Below are positions 1,366-25,305 of a stretch of DNA of 64,000 nucleotides, one piece after another (position 1 is the first letter of the stretch; the number at the start of each line of letters is the position of its first letter). The position numbers and the translations under genes were made by a program. Origin of the DNA: Amphiscolops sp. MND2022 (Eukaryota); the NCBI GenBank assembly GCA_964187785.1, contig OZ076409.1:71674001-71738000 (forward strand). The letters run 5' to 3'. A model generated the notes under the pieces. The model ran no database searches and was not told the DNA's origin. It was given only the letters and a program-made list of their open reading frames with translations.

Positions 1366-2906
1366 GTGGGCGGGGAAATTTCACCCCGTTTGTATTCGGC
1401 CGACGGGTAGGGTCCTGGCGGCCGACGATCCGCCTTAAGCTAGCGGTATGTAGCAGAAATTGCAAAAAAAAGACCTAAAATTTAATCTAACCATTAGAAT
1501 TTGCTCAAAATTTGCATGCGGCCCTCAAATCCTAATGCAAGACGAAGTTCCTGCTGACGCTAAGCGTTCTATAAACTTTATAAAAAGTTATGGCCAATTT
1601 TTTGTTCAAAATTTCAACATTTTTGGGAAAATTCTAATTTTTCACTTAATATCTCAAAATGTAATAATTTTTGGACTTTGACTGTGAAACAAGCTTGGAA
1701 CCTTCATTTCGTGGCTGTGGCATTGCACTGAACACAAAAGATGTAAAGTTTTTACATTTTTCGAAAATTCGAGATTTTTGAAATTTTTTTCACTACTATC
1801 AGTACCTCATATGTCAAAAACACATCAGAAAAAAATTTTTATTTGCTTTAAATTGGAAACCTTGGTATCCATGGTTACTGTCGGAACCTACTCGCAGCCA
1901 AACACCCAACAGTTTGCATCCAATGTGAAAATAAAATTTTTTTTTGGGTCATAAGCGTTTCACATGGATTTTACAACTTAGTTTCAATTTACAAATTGGT
2001 CATATTGAACACAATATTTTCATCGAAGCTTGTCAGATACCGCCCTAATGCTCACTAATGGGCCTACTCGCAACGTTGGAACCGTTTATAGTAATAGAAA
2101 GTTTTAAAAAAATATTTTCACCCGGTCTTCAGTCATTTTTCAGTCATTCGGAACTTAACTTAGAAAAATTTCGACCAAAATACCCATTTTTTGTCAGGTC
2201 GAAAAATCAAATTCAGATTTTTAAGCGAAATTATTTACTCTGACGTAACTAGTGGGCCCCATGATACTCAAAAACACGATTGGGACCGGTACCAAGGGCT
2301 CCAATTTCATATGAGCCGCGATAAGACGTTATTTTGAGCAACACGTCTCAATAGAGGTAAACATCTCGCAAGCCTGAAGTCACAGTGAAAAGTAATTTCA
2401 TCAAGAATTTACTCATTTTTGTCAATCACTATGTGCACAGAGTGCGCAGGATGAGTTTCAGCACTATAATGAGGTTTTTGATGTAATCGGCCTGCTCAAG
2501 GGTGTGTATGAGACATTTTTTTCCCATATAGCTATATTTTCCAAAATTTTTAGCCCATTATCTCAAAAACCTAACTTCGCAAAATGCTTTCAACTACTTT
2601 ATTCTAAGGTTAGAATATGAATGAACACTGTGGTTGATCAGAACCTCTCAATTTTTTTGTTTTCCGAAAAAATACCTTCGCATGGGTTACATTTATGGCA
2701 GAAGAGAAAGCAGAAGATAAAAAATACGCTATTTTGCTAAGATAGAAACGCGATGATTGTGCATAAATACCCTTTAAATACTTCTAACGCAACCTTATGG
2801 ACCCAATATGATTGGAAATACCGTTCACAGTCCTCACATGTACTCTTTCTACAATCCAGACTGCACATTTTTTGAAAATTTTACATGTAGCTTTAAACTG
2901 AATCTT

Positions 2907-2954
2907 GTGATAGCCTTTTAAGTTGACCTTGTGTCAACTTGGGAAGGCTATCAC
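2907..2954 (+). other. Internal palindrome P1 (representative; in all complete A and B units)
   Basis: GTGATAGCCTTTTAAGTTGAC-CTTGT-GTCAACTTGGGAAGGCTATCAC. The B copy is at 12854-12897. Both end about 420 nt before the unit end. Confidence 0.9.
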
Positions 2955-5389
2955 CACCAAAAACTATAAACAAAAACTACCATTTGTTAATCGGATTTCG
3001 CTGTCGATGCCTATTTTCGTGATTGTATACTACCGTTTGTATCTTCCATCATGTCAGCTGACGATAGCATGCAGAGTTTGAAAAAATACCTATGAACTCG
3101 AAGACATTTTTGTTTATTATTTGGTAAATAATTTTATTTCTAAATAATAAATAACAACTTCTAACCTTTGAATACTATCACATTTGTTTTCTCTTCCGTT
3201 ATCAGTCTTCCGTCACCCATGATGTCATGTCAGCCTATGTCATGACCCCGTGATTTCAACAACAACGCCATATACCAACATCAACGCCCACCGTCTGTGG
3301 GCATGCCGAGGCATGCCCTTCGACGACGTATGGCAAATTTATCGTTGCCCGCACTCTGGAGTGCGGTAGCAGCTAGGTGGGCGGGGGTAATTCCCCTTCA
3401 AAAAATTCGGCCGGCGGGTTGGGTCCTGCCGGACGTCAAATAGTGTGAAACATCCAGTAGGAAACGGCGACATAAATCAGCGATTTTAAAATTTAACCGT
3501 TAGATTTCGGATTTGGAGTGCATGCGGCCCCAAAATGCCCATACGAATCGAAGTTCCTGCTGACGTTAAGCGATAAAAACATTTTATAAAAAGTTATGGC
3601 CCATTTTACGTTCACCTATAAGGGTAAAATGAGGAAAATTTTTACAAAGTCGCTGATAACTCAAAATACATTATTTTTTGGACTTTGACTGTGAAACAAG
3701 CTTAGAACCTTCATTTCGTGGCTGTGGCATTGCACTGAACACAAAAGATGTAAAGTTTTTACATTTTTCGAAAATTCGACATTTTTGATTTTTTTTTCAC
3801 TACTATCAGTACACTATATGTCAAAAACACCTCTGAAAAAAATTATTATTTGCTTAAAATTGGAAACCTTGGTATCCATGGTTTCTGTCGGAACCTACTC
3901 GCTGCCAAACACCCAACAGTTTGCATCCAATGTGAATTTAAATTTTTTTTCGAGGTCATAAGGGTTTCACAAGGTTTTCATAACTTAGTATTAAACTACA
4001 AACTGGTCATTTTCAACATAATATCTTTGTCGAGGCATTTCGGATATAGTCCTATTGCTCACGAACGGTCCTACTGGCAACGTAATAACCATTTATAGAA
4101 ATGTAAAGTTATAAAAAAAATTTTTCACCCGGTCTTCAGTCATTTTTCAGTCATTCGGAACTTAACTTAGAAAAATTTCGACCAAAATATCCATTTTTTG
4201 TCAGGTCGAATAATCAAATTCAGATTTTTAAGCAAAATTATTAACTCTGACGTAACCCATGGGGCCCATGATACTCAAAACAACGATTGACACTGGTATC
4301 AATGGCTCCAATAACATATGAGTCGCGATAAGACGTTATTTTGAGCATTACGTCTCAATTGAGGTAAAGATCTCGCAAGCCAGCGATCACTGTGAAATGT
4401 GATTTCATCAAAAATTTACTCTTTTTTGTCAATCACTATGTGCACAGAATGCGTAGGGTGCGTTTCAGCACTATAATGAGGTTTTTGAAGGCATCGGGTT
4501 GCTCAAGGGGTGGTATGAGACATTTTTGTCCCATATACTACTGTATTTTCCAAAATTTTTAGCCCAATATCTGCAAATACAAACTTGACAAAATACTTTC
4601 AACTACTTTATTCAAAGATTACAATATAGATGAACACTGTGGTTGATCAGAAACTTTCATCTCTTTCGTTTTCCGAAATATTTCCCTTCGCATGTGTTAC
4701 ATTCGTAGCAGAAAAAAAATCGAAACTGAAAAATACGCAATTTTGCTAATATAGAATCGCAATGATTGTGCCTAAAAACTCTTTAAACACTTCTAACGCG
4801 ACCTTACGCACTCAAAATGATCGAAAATGCTATTCACAATGGTGACAAGTGCTCTTTCTACGATCCTGACTGGACAAGGTTTGCATATTTTTCAAGTACC
4901 TGTCAGCTAAATCTTGTGATAGCCTTTTCAGTTGGCCTTGTGTCAACTTGGGAAGGCTATCACATCAAAAAACCATCAATAAAAATAATTTTTGTTTATT
5001 GGATCTTACAGTCGAAACTTTTTTTCGTGATTCTATACTACCGTTAGTATATTTCATCAGGTCACCTTACGATTGCATTCAGTCTTTGATAAAAACCTAT
5101 GAACTCAAAGTCACATTTATATATTTTTTTGCCAAAAAAACATCAAAAATATCTAAAATATATAAAATAGAGTCTTGAACATTTTTACATTTCAAGTTTC
5201 TGCCGTTATTAGGCCAATCAACGTCCTAGAGCCACATCCTGTCATACTGTACAACGCCACATAGTGTTGCGACGTGCACAGTCTGTGGGCATGCCGAGGC
5301 ATGCCCTTCGACGACGTATGCCGAATACCGCGGGCCTACGCCCGCGCTCCCCGGCTAGGTGGGCGGGGGTAATTCCCCAACAAAAAAAT

Positions 5390-5417
5390 CGGCCGGCGGG
5401 TCGGGTCCTGCCGGCCG
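5390..5417 (+). other. 5' head hairpin with GGGTNGGGTCC apex (representative copy)
   Basis: CGGCCGGCGGG-TCGGGT-CCTGCCGGCCG. Equivalents with different stems are at 1397-1424, 11355-11378 and 15356-15377. Confidence 0.85.
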
Positions 5418-8400
5418 TCCAAAATCAAAATCCTCCTAGTAGAAAACGGCATGTCAAACGAGCTATTTTTTTATTTAACCATACGAATTTCACCATTTTT
5501 TGCATGCGGCCCTGAAATGGCCATACGAGACGAAGTTCCTGCTGACGTTTTGCGATGTAAATGTTTTATAAAAAGTTATGGCCGATTTGTCATTCACCTA
5601 GAAGGGTAAAATGAGGAAAATTTTAACAAAGTCGCTGATAACTCAAAATGTGGTAATTTTTGGACTTTGACTGTGAAACAAGCTTGGAACCTTCATTTCG
5701 TGGCTGGGGCATTGGACTGAACACAAAAGATGTAAAGTTTTTACGTTTTTTGAAAATTCGACATTTTTGAAATTTTTTTCACTACTATCAGTACCCCATA
5801 TGTCAAAAACACCTCAGAAAAATATTTTTATTTGCTTTAAATTGGAAACCTTGGTATCCATGGTTTCTGTCGGAACCTACTCGCAGCCAAACACCCAACA
5901 GTTTGCATCCAATGTGAAAATAAAAATTTTTTCGGGGTCATAAGCGTTTCACAAGGATTTCTCAACTTAGTATTAATTTACAAAATGGTCATTTTGAACA
6001 TAATATTTTCATCGAGGCTTGTCGGCTATAGCCTTAATGTTCTAGAACGGTCCCACTGGCAACGTAGCAACCATTTATAGTAATATAAAAGGTTAAAAAA
6101 TTTTTTTCACCCGGTCTTCAGTCATTTTTCAGACATTCGGAACATAACTTAGAAAATTTTCGACCCAAATACCCATTTTTTGTCAGGTCGAAAATTAAAA
6201 TTCAGCTATTAAAGCAAAATTATTTACTCTGACGTAACCAGTGGGGCCCATGATACTCAAAAACACCATTGGCACTGGTACCAATGGCTCCAATAACATA
6301 TGAGTCGCGATAAGACGTTATTTTGAGCAATACGTCTCAATTGAGGTAAAGATCTCGCAAGCCAGCGATCACTGTGAAATGTAAATTCATTAAAAATTTA
6401 CTCATTTTCGTCAATCACCATGTGCACAGAGTGCGTAGGGTGAGTTCCAGCACTATAATGAGGTTTTTGAAGGCATCGGGTTGCTCAAGGGGTGGTATGA
6501 GACATTTTTTTCCTATATACTACTGTATTTTCCAAAATTTTTAGCCCAATATCTGGAAATACAAACTTGACAAAATACTTTCAACTACTTTATTCAAAGG
6601 TTACAATATAGATGAACACTGTGGTTGATCAGAAACTTTCATCTCTTTCGTTTTCCGAAATATTTCCCTTCACATGTGTTATATTTTTAGCAGAATAAAA
6701 AATCGAAACTGAAATATACGCTATTTTGCTAATATAGAATCGCAATGATTGTGCCTAAAAACTCTTTAAACACTTCTAACGCAACCTTACGCACCCGAAA
6801 TGATCGAAAATGCTATTCACAATTGTGACATGTGCTCTTTCTACGATCCTGGCTGGACAAGGTTTGCATATTTTTCAAGTACCTGTCTGCTGAATCTTGT
6901 GATAGCCTTTTAAGTTGGCCTTGTGTCAACTTGGGAAGGCTATCACTTCAAACAACCATCAACAAAAATAATTTTTGTTTATTGGATATTACAGTTGATA
7001 CCTTTTTTCGTGATTCTATATTACCGTTAGTATATTCCATGAGGTCACCTTACGATTGCATTGAGACTTTGATAAAAACCTATGAACTCAAAGTCACATT
7101 TATATATTTTTTTGCCCAAAAAAATCATCAAAAACATCTATAATATATAAAATAGAGTCTTTAACATTTTTACGTTTCAAGTTTCTGCCGTTATTAAGCC
7201 AATCAACTTCCTACAGCCACGCTCTCTGTCATTCTGTACAACGCCACATAGTGTTGCGACGTGCACGGTCTGTGGGCATGCCGAGGCATGCCCTTCGACG
7301 ACGTATGCCGAATACCGCGGGCCTACGCCCGCGCTCCCCGGCTAGGTGGGCGGGGGTAATTCCCCAACAAAAATTACGGCCGGCGGGTTGGGTCCTGCCG
7401 GACGTTCAAATAGCGCGAAGCATCTAGTAGAAAACAAGGAGTCCTGAAACAGCGATTTTAAAATTGAACCGTTAGAATTTGGTTTTAGATTGCATGCGGC
7501 CCTAAAATCCCCATACGAATGGAAGTTCCTGCTAGCGTTAAGCGATTGAAATAATATATAAAAAGTTATGGCCTATTTTTGGGTCACCGAGAAGGTCAAA
7601 ATGAAGAAAATTTTAACTAAGTTGCTGATAACTCAAAATGTGTTAATTTTTGGACTTTGACTGTGAAACAAGCTTAGAACCTTCATTTCGTGGCTGTGGC
7701 ATTGCACTGAACACAATAGATGTAGAGTTTTTACATTTTTTGAAAATTCGACATTTTTGATTTTTTTTCACTACTATCAGTACACTATATGTCAAAAACA
7801 CCTCTGAAAAAAATTATTATTTGCTTAAAATTGGAAACCTTGGTATCCATGGTTTCTGTCGGAACCTACTCGCTGCCAAACACCCAACAGTTTGCATCCA
7901 ATGTGAATTTAAAATTTTTTTCGAGGTCATAAGGGTTTCACAAGGTTTTCATAACCTAGTATTAAACTACAAACTGGTCATTTTCAACATAATATCTTTG
8001 TCGAGGCATGTCGGATATAGTCCTATTGCTCACGAACGGTCCTACTGGCAACGTAATAACCATTTATAGAAATGTAAAGTTATAAAAAAATTTTTTCACC
8101 CGGTCTTCAGTCATTTTTCAGTCATTCGGAACTTAACTTAGAAAAATTTCGACCAAAATATCCATTTTTTGTCAGGTCGAAAAATCAAATTCAGATTTTT
8201 GAGCAAAATTATTAACTCTGACGTAACCCATGGGGCCCATGATACTCAAAACAACGATTGACACTGGTATCAATGGCTCCAATAACATATGAGTCGCGAT
8301 AAGACGTTATTTTGAACATTACGTCTCAATTGAGGTAAAGATCTCGCAAGCCAGCGATCACTGTGAAATGTGATTTCATCAAAAATTTACTCTTTTTTGT

Positions 8401-11243
8401 CAATCACTATGTGCACAGAATGCGTAGGGTGCGTTTCAGCACTATAATGAGGTTTTTGAAGGCATCGAGTTGCTCAAAGGATGGTATGAGACATTTTTGT
8501 CCCATATACTACTGTATTTTCCAAAATTTTTAGCCCAATATCTGGAAATACAAACTTAACAAAATACTTTCAACTACTTTATTCAGAGGTTACAATATAG
8601 ATGAACACTGTGGTTGATCAGAAACTTTCATCTCTTTCGTTTTCCGAAATATTTCCCTTCGCATGTGTTACATTCGTAGCAGAAAAAAAAATCGAAACTG
8701 AAAAATACGCAATTTTGCTAATATAGAATCGCACTGATTGTGCCTAAAAACTCTTTAAACACTTCTAACGCAACCTTAGGCACCGAAAATGATCGAAAAT
8801 GCTATTCACAATGGTGACATGTGCTCTTTCTACGATCCTGGCTGGACAAGGTTTGCATATTTTTCAAGTACCTGTCAGCTAAATCTTGTGATAGCCTTTT
8901 CAGTTGGCCTTGTGTCAACTTGGGAAGGCTATCACATCAAAAAACCATCAACAAAAATAATTTTTGTTTATTGGATCTTACAGTCGATACTTTTTTTCGT
9001 GATTCTATACTACCGTTAGTATATTTCATCAGGTCACCTTACGATTGCATTCAGTCTTTGATAAAAACCTATGAACTCAAAGTCACATTTATATATTTTT
9101 TGGCCAAAAAAACATCAAAAATATCTAAAATATATAAAATAGAGTCTTTAACATTTTTACGTTTCAAGTTTTTGCCGTTATTAAGCCAATCAACTTCCTA
9201 CAGCCACGCTCTCTGTCATACTGTACAACGCCACATAGTGTTGCGACGTGCACAGTCTGTGGGCATGCCGAGGCATGCCCTTCGACGACGTATGCCGAAT
9301 ACCGCGGGCCTACGCCCGCGCTCCCCGGCTAGGTGGGCGGGGGTAATTCCCCAACAAAAAAATCGGCCGGCGGGTCGGGTCCTGCCGGCCGTCCAAAATC
9401 AAAATCCTCCTAGTAGAAAACGGCATGTCAAACGAGCTATTTTTTTATTTAACCATACGAATCTCACCATTTTTTGCATGCGGCCCTGAAATGGCCATAC
9501 GAGACGAAGTTCCTGCTGACGTTTTGCAATGTAAATGTTTTATAAAAAGTTATGGCCGATTTGTCATTCACCTAGAAGGGTAAAATGAGGAAAATTTTAA
9601 CAAAGTCGCTGATAACTCAAAATGTGTTAATTTTTGGACTTTGACTGTGAAACAAGATTGGAACCTTCATTTCGTGGCTGGGGCATTGGACTGAACACAA
9701 AAGATGTAAAGTTTTTACGTTTTTTGAAAATTCGACATTTTTGAAATTTTTTTCACTACTATCAGTACCCCATATGTCAAAAACACCTCAGAAAAAAATT
9801 TTTATTTGCTTTAAATTGGAAACCTTGGTATCCATGGTTTCTGTCGGAACCTACTCGCAGCCAAACACCCAACAGTTTGCATCCAATGTGAAAATAAAAA
9901 ATTTTTCGGGGTCATAAGCGTTTCACAAGGATTTCTCAACTTAGTATTAATTTACAAAATGGTCATTTTGAACATAATATTTTCATCGAGGCTTGTCGGC
10001 TATAGCCTTAATGTTCTAGAACGGTCCCACTGGCAACGTAGCAACCATTTATAGTAATATAAAAGGTTAAAAAATTTTTTTCACCCGGTCTTCAGTCATT
10101 TTTCAGACATTCGGAACATAACTTAGAAAATTTTTGACCCAAATACCCATTTTTTGTCAGGTCGAAAATTAAAATTCAGCTATTAAAGCAAAATTATTTA
10201 CTCTGACGTAACCAGTGGGGCCCATGATACTCAAAAACACCATTGGCACTGGTACCAATGGCTCCATTAACATATGAGTCGCGATAAGACGTTATTTTGA
10301 GCAATACGTCTCAATTGAGGTAAAGATCTCGCAAGCCAGCGATCACTGTGAAATGTGATTTCATCAAAAATTTACTCATTTTTGTCAATAACTATGTGCA
10401 CAGAGTGTGTAGGGTGCGTTTCAGCACTATAATGAGGTTTTTGAAGGCATCGGGTTGCTCAAGGGGTGGTATGAGACATTTTTTTCCTATATACTACTGT
10501 GTTTTCCAAAACTTTTAGCCCATTATCAGGAAAAAATAATTTGACAAATTACTTTCAACTACTTTATTCAAAGGTTACAATATAGATGAACACTGTGGTT
10601 GATCAGAAACTTTCATCTCTTTCGTTTTCCGAAATAATTCCCTTCGAATGTGTTACATTTGTAGCCGGAAAAAAAACCGAAACTAAAAAATACGCGATTT
10701 TGCTGAGATAGAACCGGGATAATTGTGTCTAAATACTCTTTAAATACTTCTAACGCGACCTTACGGACCCAAAAGGATTAAAAATGCCACTCACAATGCT
10801 GACATGTGCTCTTTCGACGATCCTGGCTGGACAAGTTTTGCAAATATTTCAAGTACCTGTTAACTGAATTTTGTGATAGCCTTTTAAGTTGGCCTTGTGT
10901 CAACTTGGGAAGGCTATCACATCAAAAAACTTTCAACAAAAAAACTTTTTGTTTATTGGATATTGCTGTCGATACCTTTTTTAGTGATTCTATACTACCG
11001 TTAGTATATTCCATCAGGTCACCAGACGATTGTATTCAGTATTTGATGAAAATTTATGAACTCGAAGTCTCTTTCATATGTTTTTTGTTCAAAAAAATTA
11101 TCAAAAAAATTTATATTATAAACAATTGAGTCTTTAACTTTTTTATTCCCCAATTTTCCAGTGTTATTAGGCTCATCAACTTCCTACTGCCACATCCAGA
11201 CATTAGTACAACGCCACAAAGTGTTGCGACGTCCACCGTCTGT

Positions 11244-11263
11244 GGGCATGCCGAGGCATGCCC
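11244..11263. promoter_or_regulatory. 20-bp palindrome GGGCATGCCGAGGCATGCCC; candidate p53-family response element (representative copy)
   Basis: 9-bp inverted arms around GA. Read as two decamers (GGGCATGCCG, AGGCATGCCC) it matches RRRCWWGYYY x2 at 19/20 positions. The motif is certain; the function is inferred. Confidence 0.5.
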
Positions 11264-11293
11264 TTCGACGACGTATGCCAAAAATAGCGCCCT

Positions 11294-11321
11294 CCGCGGT
11301 CACTACCGCGGTAGCAGCTAG
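11294..11321 (+). terminator. Helitron-like 3' terminus: 18-nt hairpin + CTAG (representative copy)
   Basis: CCGCGGT-CACT-ACCGCGG ends 10 nt before the unit end (TAGCAGCTAG). This matches the known Helitron 3' signature of a 16-20 nt palindrome about 10-12 nt upstream of a CTRR end. Confidence 0.55.
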
Positions 11322-13316
11322 GTGCGGGGGGGAAACCCCAACAAAATTTTTGGAGGATTCGGGTAGGGTCCTGAATCCGAGTTCAGTGCTGCCAGCTTCC
11401 GTTAAGAAAATTTGGATAGGATTCGGGATCTCGTGATCTAACCATAGGATTTTAAAGTTGGAGCGGCCCCCACCAGATTTTCCGAAAATTAGCGCCCCCC
11501 ACCGGGTTCCATACCCCGGAAAATTTTTTTCTGGCCACACGGGCGACCGTTAGGGGGTCATTTTAGGGGTAAAATTCATATTGGGCCACATAACTTTTTT
11601 TCTGTTGATTTAAAACTTTGGGACCCTTCTAAAAGTTTCTTGGCCGTGTTGCAGGGGCCCCGGAGGTCCAAACCAAATTTTTCTATCTTGAAGCTATCTC
11701 CAAGTACCCCCCCGCCCAAAACGTTATTTTTCCGGAAACGCAGGTTTTTGACCCGGAAGGAGTCGTCGGAGCGCGGGGTCGTTAGGTGATGTATTGGGGA
11801 CGGCCTTGAGACGAAGCGGGGGACATGCAGTTTGCCAACCCCAGTTTACCCCCCGGACGGGAAATGACCGTTATATGAGCGGGAAAAATGCCCCCTTCCA
11901 CGTTTTACCGCTATTTCCGGTGTGAAGGAATGGGAGTAGCGCGTCGGGTGCCATATATCAAAAGTAGGTTTAGACAAGGACCTATCGGAAACATGTGGTT
12001 TGGGACCCCCTGGACCAACCCGTTAGCGGGAAATGGGGCTTCCGGCCCGTTTTTTTACTGCTAAAACCGTAAAATGGGCATTGAGGGGTAAATATCCCGT
12101 GAACGCGTGGAGCAATCGTGTCCATCACTACTACAAGGTTTCATACCCATGATATGGTGCCTTCAGGGGGGCAAACAGATTTCCGCTATCTATCACCGTT
12201 ACCGACTTGGCCCCCCAGCCTAACCGCTATGTGACCGGAAATGTCACTTTTTGAGCCCAAAGGGTCGGTCCCAGCCGGGGAACGTTAGGTAACTTATTGT
12301 AGTACTCAATGAGACGAGTTGGGGGATATAGTTTCAGTCACCCCCCGTTACCCCTTGGGACCGGAAATGACCGTTATGTGGGTAAAATTGCAATTTTTAT
12401 ACTTTTTCAAGTGTATTTAGGTGTGGAAGGAGTGGTAATAGGTGCTTGGACACTATATGATGTAATGGAGGTCGTGAGGAGAGCATTCGGAAATAACCGT
12501 TATGTTGACCCCAAAGTCCCCCTGGTACCGTTAACGACCGGAAATGGCCAAATTTTGTGTCTATTGGGTACAAATGTTTGGTATTTTATGGATAAAAGTA
12601 CCTGGAAGGTGTTTTAAAGGCCTCCAGAAGTGAACATAGTCATGAAACCTTGTGGGGGGTAACGGTATATAGCACCGGAAGTCCAAACCGTTGGTCACAG
12701 AATAGGTTTTTTGGTTTCAAAATGTCTTTAGGCATAGTTTTGTGGGTTGAATCGTCATAATATCAACTAATACGGACTTTTTTCGGAAATAAAATTTTTT
12801 CACATTAGTTTCAGGGACCTCCAATGCTTCAGTCAACATAACCGTTACATTTTGATAGCCTTTCAAGTTGACCTGGTGTCAACTTGGAAGGGCTATCCTT
12901 CTAAAATCGTTAATCAAGAGTGTTTTTAGGGTAGGTATATGTTGCATTAGTACCAATTAGAGCTTCATCAACAGTTTGCCAACGGCAAAAACGATGTCGT
13001 GATAATTCCGTTATAAAAATATTAGTTAACAAATTGTTTTCAAAGTTGATTTTTTCCATTAAAAATGTGTCCTGATGCCACCAAATTGAATAAAAGAATA
13101 AATGGTATTGACTAAAACTAAATAACAATGAAAAAGAAGATCAACATTTTTATTAGGTCTCATTATGGAAGCTGAAACCTCACGTTTTAGTTTAATTAAC
13201 GTCAACGCCACATACTTTACATCAACGCCCACCGTCTGTGGGCATGCCGAGGCATGCCCTTCGACGACGTATACCAAACAACCTCCATATCTACACCCAT
13301 CCGCGGTAGCAGCTAG
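11322..13316 (+). mobile_element. Class B unit (GC-richer, 1995 bp)
   Basis: Starts GTGCGGGGGG. Interior is not alignable by eye to class A, but it shares the head hairpin, palindrome P1 and the 3' core. Homologous to 16583-18558 and 18559-20530. Confidence 0.7.
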
Positions 13317-15306
13317 GTGGGCGGGGGTAATTCCCCAACAAAAAAATCGGCCGGCGGGTCGGGTCCTGCCGGCCGTCCAAAATCAAAATCCTCCTAGTAG
13401 AAAACGGCATGTCAAACGAGCTATTTTTTTATTTAACCATTAGAATTTCACCATTTTTTGCATGCGGCCCTGAAATGGCCATACGAGACGAAGTTCCTGC
13501 TGACGTTTTGCGATGTAAATGTTTTATAAAAAGTTATGGCCGATTTGTCATTCACCTAGAAGGGTAAAATGAGGAAAATTTTAACAAAGTCGCTGATAAC
13601 TCAAAATGTGATAATTTTTGGACTTTGACAGTGAAACAAGCTTGGAACTGTCATTTCGTGGCTGTGGCATTGCACTGAACACAAAAGATGTAAAGTTTTC
13701 ACATTTTTTGAAAATTCGACATTTTTGAAATTTTTTTCACTACTATCAGTACCCCATATGTCAAAAACACCTCAGAAAAAAATTTTTATTTGCTTTAAAT
13801 TGGAAACCTTGGTATCCATGGTTTCTGTCGGAACCTACTCGCAGCCAAACACCCAACAGTTTGCATCCAATGCGAAATAAAAAATTTTTTCGAGGTCATA
13901 AGCGTTTCACAAGGTTTTCATGATTTAGTATTAAATTACATAGTGGTCATTTTAAACATAAAATTTTGGTCCAGGCATGTCGGATATAGTCTGAATGCTC
14001 ACGAACGGTCCTACTGGCAACGTAGGAACCATTTATAGTAATAAAAAGTATTAAAAAAATTTTTTCACCCTGTCTTCAGTCATTTTTCAGACATTCGGAA
14101 CTTAACTTAGAAAATTTTCGAACCAAATACCCATTTTTTGTCAGGTCGAAAATTGAAATTCAGCTATTAAAGCAAAATTTTTTACTCTGACGTAACCAGT
14201 GGGGTCCATGATACTCAAAAATACGATTGGGACTGGTACCAATGGCTCCTATATCATATGAGCCGCGATAAGACGTTATTTTGAGCAATACGTCTCAATT
14301 GAGGTAAACATCTCGCAAGCCTGGGATCACAGTGAAAAGTAATTTCATCAAAAAATTACTCATTTTCGTCAATCACTATGTGCATAGAGTGGGTAGGGTG
14401 AGTTCCAACACTATAATGAGGTTTTTGAAGGCATCGGGTTGCTCAAGGGGTGGTATGAGTCATTACTTTCCTATATACAACTGTATTTTCAAAAACTTTT
14501 AGCCCATTATCTGGAAAAACTAACTTGACAAAATACTTTCAATTAATTTATTCAAAGGCTACAATATAGATGAACCCTGTGGTTGATCAGAAACTTTCAT
14601 CTCTGTCGTTTTCCGAAATAACTCCTTTCAAATGTGTTACATTTGTAGCAGAAAAAAAAACTGAAACTAAAAAATACGCGATTTTGCTGAGATAGAATCG
14701 CAATGGTTGCGCCTAAAATCTCTTTAAATACTTCTAACGCGACCTTACGGACCCAAACTGATTGAAAATGCCATTCACAATGCTGACATGTGCTCTTTCT
14801 ACGATCCTGGCTGGACAAGTTTTGCATTTTTTTCAAGTACCTGTTAACTGAACATTGTGATAGCCTTTCAAGTTGGCCTTGTGTCAACTTGGGAAGGCTG
14901 TCACATCAAAAAACTGTCAACAAAAATACCATTTGTTTATAAGATATTGCTGTCGATGCTTCACTTCGTGATTCGATCATGTCGTGAGTTCCTTCCATCA
15001 GGTCAGCTAACATTTGGATTCAGTGTTTGATAAGAACCTATGATTTTCATGACAATTTTTGTTTTTTTTTTGCCAACAAAAAGTACGAATAAATGATATA
15101 AAACATATTTGTAACCTTTAGGAAGTTTAACTTTACCTTTATTTACCGTTATCATCGCCACCCACCCCTACGACCTCGCAGTGTCCTCATTACAACGCCA
15201 CATAGTGTAGCGACGCCCACAGTCTGTGGGCATGCCGAGGCATGCCCTTCGACGACGTATGGCAAATATAGCGTTAGCCCGCGGTCACTACCGCGGTAGC
15301 AGCTAG
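13317..15306 (+). mobile_element. Class A unit (1990 bp)
   Basis: Colinear with the other A units, with its own variant pre-core and tail sequence. Confidence 0.7.
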
Positions 15307-16582
15307 GTGGTCGTTAGCATGGGATTTTCTTTATGAGCGTAGTCCACTTTTTTTAGGCCGGGGTAGGGTCCCGGGCCGTTACCAATTTCTTACGGAGGAA
15401 AAATGTGAAAATCTGCGAGTTTAAAAAATTGGCCCGTACGATTTGGCTGAAAATTGGCATACAGCATCGTCTTGGTAAACAAATGACTTTGTCTTAGTGA
15501 CATTTTGCCCAGGAAATTCAAAAAGTTGGTCAAATTGAAAATTTTTTGACCGTCTAAGGCAAAAATTTGACTTTTTCGCTTTTTTTGGTCAATTTCCTCA
15601 GAATTGGTTGATTTTGGTGAAGTGAGTCATAAGAGGTTATAAGGTCTGCAAATAGCCATCAATTGGCTTGCATAATCAGATTTTGTCAAAAGTGTTTAGT
15701 TTTTTCAAAATTTCACACTTTTTTTTCATTTCAATGTTTTTTGATATAATTTATTGAATTTTTTCTAAGTTCCACTAAATATTTTTAAAATGTTTTTAAA
15801 ACACCTTTTTTTGCACGTTTTTGATGTTTTTTGCTCTCCCATATAGGTTTTCGCATACGGGGAACCTGAATCTGGCAACGAAGTAACTTTATTCCGCAGT
15901 TCAACTTACGCCATTTTTAATAGTGAAAAATCACTCATTTTCAATCTAACGAGTGAAAATATCAGAATTTAAAAACCTAAAGTTGAGTTTAAGGCGACTT
16001 ACAGGTAGAAACAAATGCTCAGAAACAAACTGATTTCTTGTATTAGCTAAAGAAAGCCTTTAAAATTCTTTTTACTTTCTTTAAATCAATATTCGACACT
16101 TCATGAAATTTGTCAGTGGAAAAACTTTATCATTTTTTAAATTAAAAACTTGCTTTGTTGGTCATTTCCGTTAGTCATTAGTAGCTGTGTATAGCTCCGA
16201 AGCCTTTCAAGTTCTTTTGACCCTATTTGAAAATTTTTGATACTGCATAATCAATCCGAGAGAATGAAACAGTTGTGTACATTCCATCTCCCTCTTGGGG
16301 GAGATGAGAATGTACTTCCTAAAGTCCAGGTACTATAGATCATATTTGGTTTTATGCGACGCCCTCTATGCTAGTGCATATAAATACAAGTTGTTTGGCT
16401 GGATTTTGCTTCTGACTTGACGTATACTGTACGTTTGGTACTGACAATACCCATCATATACATAACAAACGTCAACGCCACATACCCTTACCAACGCCCA
16501 TAGTCCGTAGGCATGCCGAGGCATGCCTTTCGACGACGCGCGCCAAACACAAGCGCGCCCGCACTTTTGCGGTAGCGGCTAG
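15307..16582 (+). mobile_element. Class C unit (1276 bp, single copy)
   Basis: Starts GTGGTCG with a unique T-rich interior. Retains the GGGTAGGGTCC hairpin (15356-15377), palindrome P2 (16277-16315), a variant core and hairpin+CTAG. Confidence 0.7.
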
Positions 16583-19500
16583 GTGCGGGGGGGTAACCCC
16601 AACAAAATTTTTGGAGGATTCGGGTAGGGTCCTGAATCCGAGTTCAGTGCTGCCAGCTTTCGTTAAGAAAATTTGGATAGGATTCGGGATCTCGTGATCT
16701 AACCATAGGATTTTAAAGTTGGAGCGGCCCCCACCAGATTTTCCGAAAATTAGCGCCCCCCACCGGGTTCCATACCCCGGAAAATTTTTTTCTGGCCACA
16801 CGGGCGACCGTTAGGGGGTCATTTTAGGGGTAAAATTCATATTGGGCCACATAACTTTTTTTCTGTTGATTTAAAACTTTGGGACCCTGCTAAAAGTTTC
16901 TTGACCGTGTTGCAAGGGCTCCGGAGGTCCAAACCAAATTTTTCTATCTTGAAGCTATCTCCAAGTACCCCCCCGCCCAAAACGTTATTTTTCCGGAAAC
17001 GCAGGTTTTAGACCCGGAAGGAGTCGTCTGAGCGCGGGGTCGTTAGGTGATGTTTTGGGGACGGCCTTGAGACGAAGTGGGGGACATGTAGTTTGCCGAC
17101 CTCGGTTTACCCCTCGGACAGGAAATGACCGTTATTTGAGCGGGAAAATTGCCCCCCTCCACGTTTTACCGCTATTTCCGGTGTGAAGGAGTAGGAGTAG
17201 CGCGTCGGGTGTTATATATCAAAAGTAGGTTTAGACAAGGATCTATCGGAAACATGTGGTTTGGGACCCCCTGGACCAACCCGTTAGCAGGAAATGGGGC
17301 TTCCGGCCCGTTTTTTTACGGTTAAAAACGGAAAATGGGCATTGAGGGGTAAATATCTCGTGAACGCGTGGAGCTACGGTGTCCTTCACTACTTCAAGGT
17401 TTCATACCCATGATATGGTGCCTTCAGGGGGGCAAACAGATTTCCGCTATCTATCACCGTTACGGACTTGGCCCCCCAGCCTAACCGTTAAGTGACCGGA
17501 AATGTCATATTTTGAGCCCAAAGGGTCGGTCCCAGCCAGGGAACGTTAGGTAACTTATTGTAGTACTCAATGAGACGAGTTGGGGGACATAGTTTCAGTC
17601 ACCCCCCGTTACCCCTTGGGACCGGAAATGACCGTTATGTGGGTAAATTTGCAATTTTTATACTTTTTGAAGGGCATTTAGATGCGGAAGGAGTGGTAAT
17701 AGGTGCTTGGACACTATATGATGATAGGGAGGACGTGAGGCGAGCATTCGAATATAACCGTTATGTTGACCCCAAAGTCCCCCTGGTACCGGAAGTGACC
17801 CGTAATGGTCAAATTTCGTGTTTAAAGGTTACAAATGTTTGGTGTTTTATGGAAAACAGTGCCTATTAGGTGTTTCGACGGTCTGCAGTCGTGAACATAG
17901 TCATGAAACCTTGTGGGGGGTAACGGGTTATAGCACCGGAAGTCCAAACCGTTGGAGACAGGATAAGTTTTTTGGTTTTAAAATGTCTTTCGGCCTACTT
18001 TTGTCGACTATTATGGACTATTTTTGGAAAATAAAGTTTTTTCCATATAGTTTCAGAGACTCCGAAACCTCAACCAACATAACCGTTACCTTATGATAGC
18101 CTTTCAAGTTGGCCTGGTGTCAACTTGGAAGGGCTATCCTTCAAAAATCATTAATCCAGTGTGTTTTTGAGTATGCTTGTTTTACTTTAGAATCAATTAG
18201 AGCTTCAAGAAAAGATTGCCAACGACAAAAACTATGTCGTGATGATTCCGTTATTACAATAATAGTTACCAAAATGTTGATAAAGTTGATTTTTTACATT
18301 TCAAATATGTCCTAAATGCCAGAAAACCTCTTTACCAAACAAATGGTATTGATTGAATTGTAAATAGCAGCTAATAAAAGTTCAAATTGAATATTACGTT
18401 TCATTATGCAAGCTGAAACGTCATATTATAGTTTCATTAACGTCAACGCCACATACTTTACATCAACGCCCACCGTCTGTGGGCATGCCGAGGCATGCCC
18501 TTCGACGACGTATACCAAATTCCTCCAACACAACACCCCCGAGCGCGTTAGCAGCTAGGTGCGGGGGGGAAACCCCAACAAAATTTTTGGAGGATTCGGG
18601 TAGGGTCCTGAATCCGAGTTCAGTGCTGCCAGCTTTCGTTAAGAAAATTTGGATAGGATTCGGGATCTCGTGATCTAACCATAGGATTTTAAAGTTGGAG
18701 CGGCCCCCACCAGATTTTCCGAAAATTAGCGCCCCCCACCGGGTTCCATACCCCGGAAAATTTTTTTCTGGCCACACGGGCGACCGTTAGGGGGTCATTT
18801 TAGGGGTAAAATTCATATTGGGCCACATAACTTTTTTTCTGTTGATTTAAAACTTTGGGACCCTGCTAAAAGTTTCTTGGCCGTGTTGCAGGGGCCCCGG
18901 AGGTCCAAACCAAATTTTTCTATCTTGAAGCTATCTCCAAGTACCCCCCCGCCCAAAACGTTATTTTTCCGGAAACGCAGGTTTTTGACCCGGAAGGAGT
19001 CGTCGGAGCGCGGGGTCGTTAGGTGATGTATTGGGGACGGCCTTGAGACGAAGCGGGGGACATGCAGTTTGCCAACCCCAGTTTACCCCCCGGACGGGAA
19101 ATGACCGTTATATGAGCGGGAAAAATGCCCCCTTCCACGTTTTACCGCTATTTTCGGTGTGAAGGAGTGGAAGTAGCGCGTCGGGTGCCATATATCAAAA
19201 GTAGGTTTAGACAAGGACCTATCGGAAACATGTGGTTTGGGACCCCCTGGACCAACCCGTTAGCGGGAAATGGGGCTTCCGCCTCCTTTTTTTACTGCTA
19301 AAACAGTAAAATGGGCATTGAGGGGTAAATATCTCGTGAACGCGTGGAGCTACGGTGTCCATCACTACTACAAGGTTTCATACCCATGATATGGTGCCTT
19401 CAGGGGGGCAAACAGATTTCCGCTATCTATCACCGTTACTGACTTGGCCCCCCAGCCTAACCGCTATGTGACCGGAAATGTCACTATTTGAGCCCAAAGG

Positions 19501-20530
19501 GTCGGTCCCAGCCGGGGAACGTTAGGTAACTTATTGTAGTACTCATTGAGACGAGTTGGGGGATATAGTTTCAGTCACCCCCCGTTACCCCTCGAGACCG
19601 GAAATGACCGTTATGTGAGTAAAATTGCCATTTTTGTACTTTTTGAAGGGCATTTAGATGCGGAAGGAGTGGTAATAGGTGCTTGGACACTGTATGATGT
19701 AAGGGAGGACGTTAGGCGAGCATTCGGACATAACCGTTATGTTGACCCTAAAGTCCCCCTGGTACCGTAAACGACCGGAAATGGTCAAATTTTGTGTCTA
19801 TTGGGTACAAATGTTTAGTATTTTGTAAATAAAAGTATCTATTAGGTGTTTCGACGGTTTGCAGTAGTGAACATAGTCATCAAACCTTGTGGGGGGTAAC
19901 GGTATATAGCACCGGAAGTCCAAACCGTTGGTGACAGGATAGGTTTTTTGGTTTTAAAATGTCTTTCGGCGTACCTTTGTCGACTATTAAGGACTATTTT
20001 TTAAAAATTAAAGTTTTTCTATATAGTTTCAGAGACTCCGAAACCTCAACCAACATAACCGTTACCTTTTGATAGCCTTTCAAGTTGGCCTGGTGGCAAC
20101 TTGGAAGGGCTATCCTTCAAAAATCGTTAATCAAGAGTGTTTTTGGGTAGGTATATATTCAATTAGTACCAATTAGAGCTTCATCAACAGTGTATCAACG
20201 ACAAAAACTAAGCCGTCATGATTCCGTTGTTAGAATAGTAGTGAGCTAATTGTTGACAAAAATATTTTTTTTATACAAAATGTGTCCTAAATGCCAGGAA
20301 ATCTATTTACCTAACAAATGGTTATGATTGGAATGTATGTAACAGATTTATAAAAGTTCAAATTGAATATTACGTTTCATTATGGAAGCTGAAACGTCAT
20401 ATTTTAGTTTAATTAACGTCAACGCCACATACTTTACATCAACGCCCACCGTCTGTGGGCATGCCGAGGCATGCCCTTCGACGACATATACCAAATACAT
20501 ACCTAACGACGCCCGTACATCCCGGGCTAG
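16583..20530 (+). mobile_element. Two class B units (16583-18558, 1976 bp; 18559-20530, 1972 bp)
   Basis: Colinear with 11322-13316, with near-identical heads and different tails. Confidence 0.7.
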
Positions 20531-23500
20531 GTGGGCGGGGGTAATTCCCCAACAAAAAAATCGGCCGGCGGGTCGGGTCCTGCCGGCCGTCCAAAATCAA
20601 AATCCTCCTAGTAGAAAACGGCATGTCAAACGAGCTATTTTTTTATTTAACCATACGAATTTCACCATTTTTTGCATGCGGCCCTGAAATGGCCATACGA
20701 GACGAAGTTCCTGCTGACGTTTTGCGATGTAAATGTTTTATAAAAAGTTATGGCCGATTTGCCATTCACCTAGAAGGGTAAAATGAGGAAAATTTTAACA
20801 AAGTCGCTGATAACTCAAAATGTGTTAATTTTTGGACTTTGACTGTGAAACAAGCTTGGAACCTTCATTTCGTGGCTGGGGCATTGGACTGAACACAAAA
20901 GATGTAAAGTTTTTACGTTTTTTGAAAATTCGACATTTTTGAAATTTTTTTCACTACTATCAGTACCCCATATGTCAAAAACACCTCAGAAAAAAATTTT
21001 TATTTTCTTTAAATTGGAAACCTTGGTATCCATGGTTTCTGTCGGAACCTACTCGCAGCCAAACACTTAACAGTTTGCATCCAATGTGAAAATAAAATTT
21101 TTTTCGGGGTCATAAGCGTTTCACAAGGATTTCTCAACTTAGTATCTATTTACAAATTGGTCATTTTGAACACATGATTTTCATCGAAGCGTGTCAGATA
21201 CCACCCTAATGCTCACGAATGGGCCTACTGGCAACGTTGGAACCATTTTTAGTAATAGAAAGTATTAAAAAAATATTTTCACCCGGTCTTCAGTCATTTT
21301 TCAGACATTCGGTACTTAACTTAGAAAAATTTCGCATCAAAAACCCATATTTGGTAGGGTCGAAATTTGAAATTCAGTTTTTTATGCAAAATTATTAACT
21401 CTGACGTAACCAGTGGAGCCCATGATACTCAAAATCACGATTGGGACTGGTATCAGTGGCTCCAATAACATATGAGCCGCGATAAGACGTTATTCAGAGC
21501 AAACGCTCTAAATCGAAGTAAACATCTCTGAAGCCTGGGATCACAGTGAAATGTGATATCACCAAAAGTTTACTCTTTTTTGTCAATCACTATGTACACA
21601 GAGTGCGTAGGGTGAGTTTCAGGACTATAATGAGGTTTTTGAAGTAATCGCGCTGCTCAAGGGGTGGTATGAGACTATTTTTTCCCATATACTACTACAT
21701 TTCCATAAATTTGCAGTCCATTGTCTTGGAAAGATAACTTCACAAAAACAATTTTTGTACTCTATTCAGTTATTAGAATAAAGTTGAACACTGTGGTTGA
21801 TCAGAAATGCTCAATTCTTTTGGTTTTTAAAAAAATTCCTTCGCATTCGTTACATTTGTGGAAGGAAGGTTATCAGTAGCTCCAAAAAAAACGAAATTTA
21901 GCACGAACAGACATGCAACGATGCAAAGCAAAAACGTTTTTACAACTTTCGACGTCATTATTTTACCCAAGAAGATTGAAAATATCATTCGCAATGCTGT
22001 CATTCGCTATATATACGATCGCGGTCAATTTACAAACATTTAGATTTCATTGTTCTGCTTGAAAACCAATTTTTGTCAGGTCGAAATTTTAAATTTTGCC
22101 TGGGGAGCAAAACCCTTCACGCTGAAGTAAACAGTGGGGCCCAAGTTACTCAAAAACAAGAAAGAGACTGCTACAATATGTCCTAATAACATATGGACCA
22201 CGATAGTACACTTTTCACACAAAAAACTCTCATCCGAAGTAAATATGTTGAAAGCTTTTAATCACCGTGAGAAGTGATTTCATCAAAAAATAACTCTTTT
22301 TTGTCAATCACTATTTACACAGAATTTGTAAAGTTAGTTTGAGTCATGAAATGAGGCTTTACCGTAATATGGGTTGCTCAAGGTGTTATATAAGACAAAA
22401 ACTTCCTCTTTTCTACTAGCTTCTTCAAATATTTCAACCCTTTGTCACAATAAGTTAATATTCAAAATATCTTTGAAATGTATCTTTATGTTGGGGTGAA
22501 GTCTAAGAACAATAACTATGATCGAAGAATGCTAGTACTGGTGTTTGAACCATGTCCGGATGAACAAATCACAAAATCATCAAAAAATTGTTCCCTTTTT
22601 TGGTTATTTTGGCAGTACTAAAAATGTTAGCTGATAAATAATTTTTTCGATGGCACCATTGGATTCCTCTCAAAAAGTTGGTTATATGACCTGTGTAATA
22701 ACCCCGTATCTTTTCAATTTAAATATATTTAAAAAGCCAACTATTTTGACCAAAATCCTAAAAATCATACCATTTCCTAAAAATTTTCAAATGCACCCCA
22801 TTTGACGTATAAGATAAGCACAGAAAACTATCATTTACCGATCAACTCTACTCCCATTGTAGATTATTAGAATTCTGTTTAGAATGAATTTTGATGGATA
22901 TTAAAAAAATTTTGAACCCTCCAAAAATGGGCCAAAATTACACGAAAAAATTGACCTTAAAATACCAAAATGTCAAAAAATCATCAAAACCACGGCTTCT
23001 TGGGGTTCTATCAACTCCGCGTGGTCCACAGAGTATGCTAAAACAGGATTTACCCGTTTTTGAGCAATATGTGAAAAAGCCGACATTTTTGGGAAAGAAA
23101 AACATACCATTTCCTAAAAAAATTCAAATGCACGTAATTTGCCGTATTAGAATAGCACAGAAAACTATCACATACCAATCAACTCTACTTCCATTGCAGA
23201 TGAACAGAATTTTGTTTAGAATGAATTTTACCGGATAATAAAAAAATTTGAATCCTTCAAAAATGGGCCAAAATTACACGAAAAAATGGACCTTAAAAAT
23301 TTAAAAAGTCAAAAAATCATCAAAACAACAGCTTCTTGGGGTTCTATCAACTCCACGAGGTCCACAGAGTATGCTAAAACAGGTTTTACCCGTTTTTGAG
23401 CAATATGTGAAAAAGCCGACATTTTTGGGAGAGAAAAACATACCATTTCCTAAAAAAATTCAAATGCACGCCATTTGCCGTATGAAAATAGCACAGAAAA

Positions 23501-25305
23501 CTATCACATACCAATCAACTCTACTTTCATTGCAGATGAACAGAATTTTGTTTAGAATAAATTTTACCGGATAATAAAAAAATTAGATTCCTTCTAAAAT
23601 GGGCCAAAATTACACGAAAAAATGGACCTTAAAATTTTAAAATGTCAAAAAATCATCAAAACCACGGCTTCTTGGGGTTCTATCAACTCCACGTGGTCCA
23701 CAGAGTATGCTTTATAGAGAGAATAAAACCCGGTTTTACCCATCTTTGAGCAAAATGTGAAAATACCGACATTTTTGGAAAAGAAAAAAATACCATTTTC
23801 TAATAAATTTCAAATGCACGCCATTTGCTGTATGAGAATAACACAGAAAGCTGTCACATACCGATCAACTCTACTTCCATTGTAGATTATCAGAAGTTTG
23901 TTTAGAATAAATTTTGATGGTTAATAAAAAAAATTGAATCCATGAAAAATGGGCCAAAATTACACGAAAAAATTGACCTTAAAATATCAAAATGTCAAAA
24001 AATCATCAAAACCACAGTTTCTTGGCGTTCTATCAACTCCATATGATACCAAACCAGGTACTGCCAATCGTTTGAGTTATAATAAAAAAACGTCTTTTTT
24101 GGCAAGAATTCCATACCATAAATAATAATCATGTTCCATATAAGAAGCGAATCATTTCAGATATATACCCTGTTCATTTTTTTAATATTACCGATTATTA
24201 ATTTAATAGATGTTTTGAATGTGAGCTTCCTAAAAGGTTCAGGTGTGATGTTACGTAAATAGAACCTTAGTTTCATCGAAATCTCAATTGAATATGTCCA
24301 ATCTTAACCATCAGATAACAAGAAACACTTAAGTACATTCCATCTCCCCATCGGGGGAGATGAGAATGTACTTTCGAGAAGCCAAATACGTCCAACATTC
24401 AAACTTTTGTAACTTTGTATGTAACTCCTGAAACGAAGAAGGAATAAAATTGTTTCTGGTACATACATGAGTCTTTACTTCAGCTTCTATTTCTGCTGAA
24501 CAAAACCATTCGACTCTTTTGCCGGAGTTAAGATCGATTGTATTACCCAGTGAACAAAGGCATGACTGAAAACGTTTACTACTTTGTTCATAATTTTCCG
24601 GCCTTCCGAAATGATGAAACGTCCACATAACTAAGATAGCAAGTGAATGACTGCGAAATGCACCTTATTAGATGAGGTAAATAACGTGTAAAACTCTCCT
24701 TTATCCTAACATGAGGTTGAGTAATGATCATTTGAGAATAGTTTGATATGTGAATACAATAGTATAAAACAAGTACATTTTATATGAATAACGCCGTGGA
24801 AAGCGTTCAGAAAGGACAGTAGGCTTGTTTGGAACATGTATGTGTGGTGTCCCTTGGTGGCGTTCGCTTAGTGTATATGTCGAGGGGTATTCGAGTTGTT
24901 ATGATAGAATTTACACACAAGTCTTTTGTTTTTTGGTTTTTTTAAAATGTCGTTAAGTACCTGCATTCTATCCCCTTCTCAGAGATGACGTGAAGTTACG
25001 TTTGCTAAATAAATGTCATCGAAAGATCACACTCCCGACGAAATTAACTATCTTAACACGTGTTTAGAATTTTAAATAAACAACCGTATAGGATTTTTAT
25101 ATTTCATTGAGTTTGATGAAGTCTTTTGTTCTTCTCACTACTATTTCAACCAATACACATATCCGTTACCATATCACATGTCTCCATTAGTACAACGCCA
25201 CATAGCGTTCCGACGCCCACAGTCTGTGGGCATGCCGAGGCATGCCCTTCGACGACGTATGGCAAATGGAGCCATGCCCGCCGTCTTTACGGCGGTAGCG
25301 GCTAG
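20531..25305 (+). mobile_element. Class D unit (4775 bp)
   Basis: First ~1.3 kb is homologous to class A. It continues with a diverged internal duplication, ~338-bp subrepeats, palindrome P2 and the core. Carries a private 14-bp insertion. Confidence 0.7.
22761..24040 (+). repeat. Internal ~338-bp tandem subrepeat, about 3.7 copies (class D)
   Basis: AAAATGGGCCAAAATTACACG recurs near 22924, 23260, 23597 and 23947. Confidence 0.92.

Follow-up and report, generated by a model that had tools for sequence, protein, structure and literature searches.

The closest described relatives of the system treated here are the Helitron-like elements HLE1 and HLE2, a third Helitron clade in Paramecium and a few cases of tandem or self-inserted copies. 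They are compared with a head-to-tail array of units in a 64,000-bp stretch of DNA from Amphiscolops sp. MND2022 (assembly GCA_964187785.1, contig OZ076409.1, forward strand; G000:C1:71674001-71738000 in the numbering used here), called the window throughout. The analysis centres on the B unit at 11322..13316 and on the A units beside it, both about 1.98 kb long. A and B are probably gene-less, shortened relatives of two different autonomous elements with a RepHel transposase, likely borne on circles and inserting singly at CTAG^GT joints, and their equal length would likely reflect shared ends and chance.

The array elements resemble HLE1 and Helraiser (PMC4778049, PMC11417382) in a RepHel protein with HUH and two-tyrosine motifs and PIF1, a 3' hairpin, a CTRR end, insertion without target duplication, an RPA-like gene downstream and non-autonomous derivatives with shared ends; circles have been shown for Helraiser (PMC4778049). 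HLE1 elements, as described there, start with TC and insert at A^T, whereas the array elements start with GT(G), use the target CTNG^DT and differ further by a conserved 5' stem-loop, a C-terminal GIY-YIG-like domain, an SGNH-like gene and the presence of about 96% of one end type in arrays. With HLE2 (Helitron2/Helentron; PMC3627910, PMC11417382) they have in common hairpins at both ends, internal satellite-like repeats and long transposases with added protease-like domains, and a captured GIY-YIG domain is described for one moss HLE2 family (PMC11417382). Unlike HLE2, they gave no DUF6570 or AP endonuclease hit in the proteins scanned, their target is not T^T, their 3' end is CTAG and they occupy a separate tree branch. 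Termini and target fit neither the HLE1 (5' TC, A^T) nor the HLE2 (T^T) definition given in PMC11417382. The Paramecium Helitrons (PMC13085455) also lie outside HLE1 and HLE2, insert sequence-specifically in a fixed orientation and have long open reading frames (ORFs) with satellites between ORF and ends; compared by description only, they end in CCAA, target telomeric repeats and have no GIY domain mentioned in the main text of that paper, whereas the array elements end in CTAG, CTGG or CTTG and have non-telomeric flanks.

Head-to-tail copies, as seen here, occur in the tandem Helitrons of plant centromeres (Xiong et al. 2016, per PMC12628747), and insertion next to or into another copy is described for transposable element dimers from insertion-site preference (McGurk and Barbash, per PMC12628747) and for Helitron self-insertion in Fusarium (PMC5148889). 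As summarised in these sources, such cases amount to concatemers of truncated copies from a single family, to dimers or to events that happen rarely (PMC12628747, PMC5148889). The present arrays, unlike them, interleave full-length units of many families with intact autonomous elements over megabases, in an order that is not inherited. No description of multi-family junction-targeted Helitron arrays was found in the literature searched, with Repbase, subscription journals and supplements outside the search. IS91-family and adeno-associated virus (AAV) Rep proteins are HUH enzymes with duplication-free insertion at a short target resembling the element's own end; these systems are bacterial or viral, are not known to form mixed arrays and may serve as an analogy of mechanism only.

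Autonomous parents of the A and B units

The array of the window (Table 1) belongs to an array region on C1 whose matches extend between about 70.46 and 76.46 Mb in the 1.07 Gb assembly searched. Its complete units run from GTG to CTAG, one ending in CTGG instead. Fourteen of the 15 A units measure 1982-1992 bp and one 2011 bp; the three B units measure 1972, 1976 and 1995 bp, and GC content is 0.37-0.38 in A against 0.45 in B. No ORF of at least 125 amino acids was found in the A/B region, and an Rfam scan of the window gave no match.

A parent was identified for each unit type. For A it is a 27,243-bp unit (G000:C3:3624385-3651627), whose 5' end corresponds to A 1-1517 at 82.6% and whose 3' end corresponds to A 1419-1989 at 62%. 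For B it is a 20,207-bp unit (G000:C1:70548465-70568671), matched in its 5' region by B 3-1113 at 75% and B 305-1431 at 71%. The P1 segment of B, which contains a palindrome, is missing from B's parent, and the right module of B is therefore of the A type: about 1.46 kb at the 5' side of the B unit at 11322..13316 is related to the 20.2-kb element, and about 0.47 kb at the 3' side is an A-type right end. B would have gained this module from A by recombination. The C units are likewise composite, with the first ~3.2-3.5 kb of A's parent, including its 336-bp repeats (C 1-3205 matches at 95%), joined to the 3' part of the 1.28-kb lineage.

Both parents carry Pfam Helitron_like_N and PIF1 domains, as does a further autonomous element, Auto1; a second copy of each parent's start was seen, and other unit families likewise have autonomous parents of their own. 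Autonomous elements sharing their ends with the units are 12-27 kb long. Their RepHel proteins, of about 2200-2800 amino acids, combine a PIF1 helicase with HUH and two-tyrosine motifs and mostly have a GIY-YIG-like domain at the C-terminus; the HUH and YxxxY motifs are present in Auto1-4. Solo copies of A (1977-1978 bp) and B (1966 and 1994 bp) are dispersed elsewhere in the genome. Since A and B are tied to RepHel parents and also occur as solo copies, they are regarded as non-autonomous Helitron-like elements. Pieces of both are present at low depth in two contig sets from sequencing runs.

A genome search for Helitron_like_N gave 152 matches, many within these arrays, and using a single array Rep domain as query yielded 117, most of them stop-free (of 511 candidates, 116 were scored). 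Intact transposase ORFs that are identical or nearly so number in the dozens, which suggests recent activity and makes the system testable.

Stem-loop ends around unrelated interiors, together with an HUH-type Rep in the parents, would also suit integrated components of a multipartite single-stranded DNA virus or programmed minicircles of fixed size. This origin is barely credible, given the nature of the parents (RepHel elements of 12-27 kb that encode a PIF1 helicase), the absence from A and B of any ORF of 125 amino acids or more, the 7-fold variation in unit size (0.7-4.8 kb) and the lack of a capsid-like match among the proteins tested (RPA/OB, SGNH and, weakly, USP folds; several smaller parent ORFs were outside the folded set).

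Shared ends of A and B

The original prediction described A and B as sequence-unrelated units of the same length. The lengths and the difference in base composition were confirmed; the unrelatedness holds only for an interior of about 1.2 kb. The sensitive A-versus-B alignment that had been proposed as a check revealed colinear homology at both ends: A 1539-1989 aligns at 61% with B 1529-1995 (481 columns, E 1e-23), A 5-52 aligns with B 3-52, and a profile of A matches B at 5-176 and 1540-1976. Homology thus covers the first 175-300 bp and the last ~0.45 kb; on these alignments about 750 of 1985 bp is common to A and B through descent or recombination. The interior (~300-1535) has no detectable homology (z 0.5 against block shuffles, compared with z 6.6 for the P1 segment).

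The shared end modules account for the similar positions of P1 and of the motif GGGTNGGGT in both units. The motif begins 39 nt past the junction, as predicted, in 23 of the 24 window units, and 54 nt past it in the 1276-bp D unit. The equal distance from P1 to the junction fared less well, as the A unit quoted for it (422-424 nt) is the sole outlier: the distance is 397-407 nt in the remaining 14 of the 15 A units and 416-420 nt in the B units. Measured from the unit end, P1 starts at 432-468 nt in 37/37 A and 448-464 nt in 36/36 B units, and at 351-353 and 325-338 nt in 1.39-kb families.

At the left end the loop GG(G/T)NGGG(T/C/G)CC is kept across families while the stem covaries; 53 distinct stems form 6.1 pairs on average, against 4.6 with arms swapped between variants (maximum 5.1 of 500). 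The 3' hairpin block occurs in 4239 exact copies across the genome. Hairpins fold at the 3' ends of A, B and D and none in the F1 family. Unit termini at 346 junctions are CTAG (323), CTGG (19) and CTTG (4), forms that the detection pattern favours.

Three further observations concern the ends. The last 20 nt of units show the same terminal hairpin types in different families (A with C; B with the 1.28-kb family), which suggests on sequence grounds that end swapping between families is frequent. One C unit (window 54546-54606) stops early, in the second hairpin, at CTGG, with the GTG of the next unit directly after. The last ~12 bases of a solo unit (L025:6615-7870) are like host sequence just upstream of the insertion and unlike the usual end of its family.

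Insertion target and array growth

Helper transposase from the autonomous elements likely moves A and B as circles. Nicking would occur at the GTG left end and termination at the 3' hairpin and CTAG; the circle junction would have the sequence of the array junction. Monomer circles would integrate singly at resident joints, each insertion regenerating the joint, and the resident left-end stem-loop (or the right end) may be recognised as the preferred landing site.

Two empty sites were found. A 1256-bp unit at CTTG^GT is missing from 11/11 other copies of the host repeat, with no duplication. At the second site (CTAG^TT), occupied by a 15,933-bp array of eight units, 9/11 paralogous loci run straight into the right flank and 2/11 gave no anchor match. 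The common CTNG leaves the insertion boundary ambiguous by one base. One common 3' end continues with GTG[GC] in 1544 copies; a base other than G follows in 26 copies (25 of them [AT]T), and GT with a non-G base in 20 copies, by design of the search. The last two counts fall short by about a quarter to a third, and ends with G before a base other than T lay outside the patterns used. About 96% of one 3'-end type adjoin another unit. The left flank is C[TC]NG at 16/20 array or solo edges. In 360 kb of flanking DNA the target hexamer has a density of 3.95 per kb and therefore cannot alone explain the clustering.

Clustering might also arise if insertion were hexamer-specific but otherwise guided by region (chromatin domain, local hopping), or if dispersed copies were purged, the resident end being unrecognised. 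Solo copies at ordinary CTNG^DT sites and the limitation of large arrays to few regions agree with this; however, units contain internal CTNG^DT-like sites, yet the sampled arrays have nearly all clean one-strand end-to-end joints, and other repeats in this genome are dispersed in hundreds of copies. We consider it unlikely.

Neighbour relations were analysed for 312 units of <5.2 kb from about 0.86 Mb, in regions picked non-randomly around known arrays and ORFs. None of the units with a copy of at least 98.5% identity shared its next neighbour with that copy (0/56 across regions, 0/59 within a region), pointing to serial monomer insertion at junctions. The arrays could instead derive mainly from rolling-circle concatemers or from unequal crossing-over with segmental duplication, as in ordinary satellite DNA, and junction targeting would then be unneeded. 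Such an origin could draw on an excess of same-family neighbours, a pair of A copies in the window that are 100% identical at a distance of 22 kb, the window's long self-alignments and the rolling-circle tandem arrays described for Helitrons (Xiong et al. 2016, in the account of PMC12628747). It is nevertheless improbable as the main route: adjacent pairs of at least 99% identity are rare (4/281), neighbours are not co-inherited (0/115 at 98.5% or more), small dispersed arrays combine several families at one host site, and units are full-length with both ends.

Serial insertion of circles at resident joints remains the preferred reading, and several points weigh against it. The second empty site shares just ~6-12 bp of right flank with its paralogues, and 4/20 edges have no C[TC]NG flank. 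At an identity of at least 97%, 2/116 units (across regions) and 7/106 (within a region) do share a neighbour, and same-family neighbours are enriched (138 against 87 +/- 6 in within-region shuffles); junctions are therefore not hit at random, and a degree of local copying may be involved. Within an array, a single clean filled/empty junction pair was found. Circles and nicking are presumed from contig sequence.

Among candidate filled/empty triples, three of four were rejected as artefacts of tandem same-family pairs. Array segments at G000:C1:23975300-23978672 and C1:72444500 are locally inverted, with an inverted joint.

Unit length

The original prediction took the equal lengths as a sign of selection on size and geometry, as for circles packaged or replicated at a fixed size. 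Separate mobile modules, a shared terminal geometry and a probable circular intermediate are retained from that proposal; the fixed size is not, as the window alone also has units of 1276 bp and 4761-5081 bp. The size classes found are ~0.71, 1.04-1.07, 1.25-1.32, 1.39, 1.75, 1.92-2.01, 2.33, 2.8, 3.07 and 4.76 kb; the accompanying histogram of 355 junction-to-junction intervals contains compound intervals and a few double counts. Mobile forms of the A lineage measure 0.71, ~2.0, 2.33, 4.76 and 27 kb, those of the B lineage ~2.0, 2.8 and 20 kb. This contradicts a fixed size, and a size fixed by packaging or the like is very improbable.

Most families of the same size are homologous by profile comparison, so descent explains their shared length. 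With 13 size classes, at least one pair within 1% is expected by chance with P 0.58; two pairs were observed (P 0.18). The best nucleosome-multiple fit of the 13 classes (period 184.5 bp) has P 0.14 and was rejected. Pure chance is opposed by the non-homologous interiors of A and B, 1235 and 1210 bp long, which agree within 2% and come from different parents. The 1.28-kb lineage adds to this: its length differences plateau at 10-18 bp root mean square from 10% to 45% divergence, and the medians of its seven families have a standard deviation of 7.0 bp where simulated neutral indels would give 15-18 (P 0.008-0.034; the test assumes a star tree and was chosen post hoc).

The same elements and targeting could be combined with selection on total length, acting for example by way of circle formation, of nucleosome occupancy or of a particle; lengths of about 1.28 and 1.98 kb would be favoured, and A and B would have converged in size. 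This has a real, if lesser than even, chance of being correct. Besides the A/B interiors and the length stasis, it is favoured by the retention in B of about 2 of the parent's 3.1 503-bp repeats, the 2.8-kb form being rare (36 against 1 among 312 units); by an AA/TT periodicity of 10-11 bp in A (P 0.01), B (P 0.03), C and D (P 0.01 each) and altogether in 8/14 families at P<=0.05; and by internal repeats of 336 and 503 bp as multiples of 168. Against it stand mobile forms at 0.71, 1.75, 2.33, 2.8, 3.07, 4.76 and 12-27 kb and the chance levels given above for size pairs and nucleosome multiples. The 1.28-kb families, moreover, are colinear homologues with ~0.8 kb in common with the parents' 5' ends, where in-register recombination or constraint at the sequence level can fix length; in-register recombination in this conserved ~0.8-kb 5' region could give the same stasis. 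The accessory proteins tested are RPA-like and SGNH-hydrolase-like, not capsid-like.

Two candidates for length convergence were rejected. A 4772-bp interval starting with B, which seemed to converge on the C size, combines a B unit and a 2.8-kb B variant, a junction having been overlooked. Other apparent length-preserving replacements (D against the 1.28-kb families, the 1.04-1.07-kb families, the F1 3' end and the F24 middle) are homologous or ambiguous (z -0.2 to 5.2), which leaves A/B as the only clean case.

Placement among Helitron-like elements

In a Rep-plus-helicase tree (18 proteins, 503 columns) the array transposases and environmental homologues stand apart on a branch with an ultrafast bootstrap (UFBoot) of 100. 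The references were one HLE1-like and four DUF6570-bearing Helitrons, all from this genome and labelled by Pfam; Paramecium and Repbase sequences were left out. Identity of the array transposases is 17-21% to the reference Helitrons of the same genome and 17-20% to the HLE1-like protein, and Helraiser matches in the helicase only (E 2e-6). No DUF6570 or AP endonuclease hit was obtained in Auto1, Auto2 (N-terminal 1793 amino acids), Auto3, both parents and eight database homologues, whereas DUF6570 was hit in 4/4 control elements. By these comparisons the array transposases apparently form an undescribed Helitron-like group, apart from the HLE1-like and HLE2-like Helitrons of the genome.

The length match is probably not the main point of the locus; its main feature is an apparently undescribed, recently active, self-stacking Helitron-like lineage. 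A wider proposal, which we hold to be doubtful, would make this a third eukaryotic rolling-circle lineage, with a GIY-YIG-like C-terminus and members in several unrelated organisms, whose circles exchange origin-to-origin into resident joints, with more than 12 autonomous and passenger families in self-made megabase havens and passengers held to about 1.28 and 1.98 kb whatever their interior.

The preferred reading, single insertion at resident joints, would provide a route to megabase satellite-like arrays other than concatemer amplification or unequal crossing-over, together with a community of transposons that spares genes by inserting next to its own copies. An HUH transposase with a strong preference for a definable junction would render Helitron target choice experimentally accessible and could act as a landing-pad integrase. 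Since a single set of ends is common to many families, it can be tested directly here whether non-autonomous elements have optimal lengths.

Features of the window

Table 1. Coordinates of the array, of the B unit at its centre of interest and of neighbouring units in the window
Feature	Position	Strand	Basis or remark
Head-to-tail mixed array	1366..62555	+	24 complete units: 15 A, 3 B, 5 C, 1 D
A unit, 1989 bp, related by internal deletion to the 27.2-kb autonomous element	9333..11321	+	alignment to parent
B unit, 1995 bp, non-autonomous Helitron-like element	11322..13316	+	junction-to-junction; parent comparison
Left end of B, starts GTG, stem-loop	11322..11385	+	loop conserved, stem covaries among families
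Two diverged copies of ~503-bp internal repeat in B	11626..12547	+	3.1 copies in B's parent
P1 palindrome, in 3' module common to A, B and A's 27-kb parent	12854..12897	+	alignments
Right end of B: conserved hairpin (13240-13259), variable second hairpin, terminal CTAG	13240..13316	+	fold; genome count
Junction CTAG^GT, same form as host target CTNG^DT	13313..13318	+	junction and insertion-site comparison
A unit, 1990 bp	13317..15306	+	junction-to-junction
D unit, 1276 bp, divergent member of 1.28-kb lineage	15307..16582	+	unit and profile comparison
Two B units (1976, 1972 bp)	16583..20530	+	junction-to-junction
C unit, 4775 bp	20531..25305	+	four further C units in window; C range 4761-5081 bp

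Proteins and related elements

Matches to the GIY-YIG-like C-terminal domain miss the Pfam cut-off in Auto1 (E 4e-4) and, in a separate frame, in B's parent (E 2e-4); they pass it in 7/8 database homologues scanned, and in Auto3 and Auto4 the domain seems, by eye, degenerate. SGNH-hydrolase-like and RPA-like OB-fold proteins (L018:7359-8027 and L018:5220-6389) are found in several autonomous families. The predicted model of the RPA-like accessory product has a predicted local distance difference test (pLDDT) score of 71 and a Foldseek match at E 7e-5, another accessory product resembles SGNH hydrolases, and a PDB profile search with the OB-protein alignment returned none. The transposase has a conserved Cys-rich N-terminal region with no Pfam match (L019:47-7168, residues ~70-790), whose low-confidence model (pLDDT 53) matches USP-type deubiquitinase folds.

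Related proteins of ~2500 amino acids with RepHel and GIY-YIG domains occur in unrelated environmental sequences (P0046-P0051, L214-L216), with 20-33% identity in the Rep region. Metagenome relatives (11 loci) have no 5' loop motif, on contigs too short to show ends.

A 14,083-bp autonomous element at G000:C1:71601601-71615683 (L062-L063), 58 kb from the window, encodes a 2545-amino-acid RepHel, has an SGNH-like ORF upstream and an A/B-type 3' hairpin, and is the parent of a 3.07-kb family. The first ~770-900 bp of autonomous elements and 1.28-kb units, which are non-coding, can be aligned although the transposases share just 35-40% identity; this region may hold a promoter or a structured RNA. 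At G000:C1:74856916-74869726, B 1-1181 is joined in frame to a truncated Auto1 transposase, giving an open frame of 2231 amino acids.
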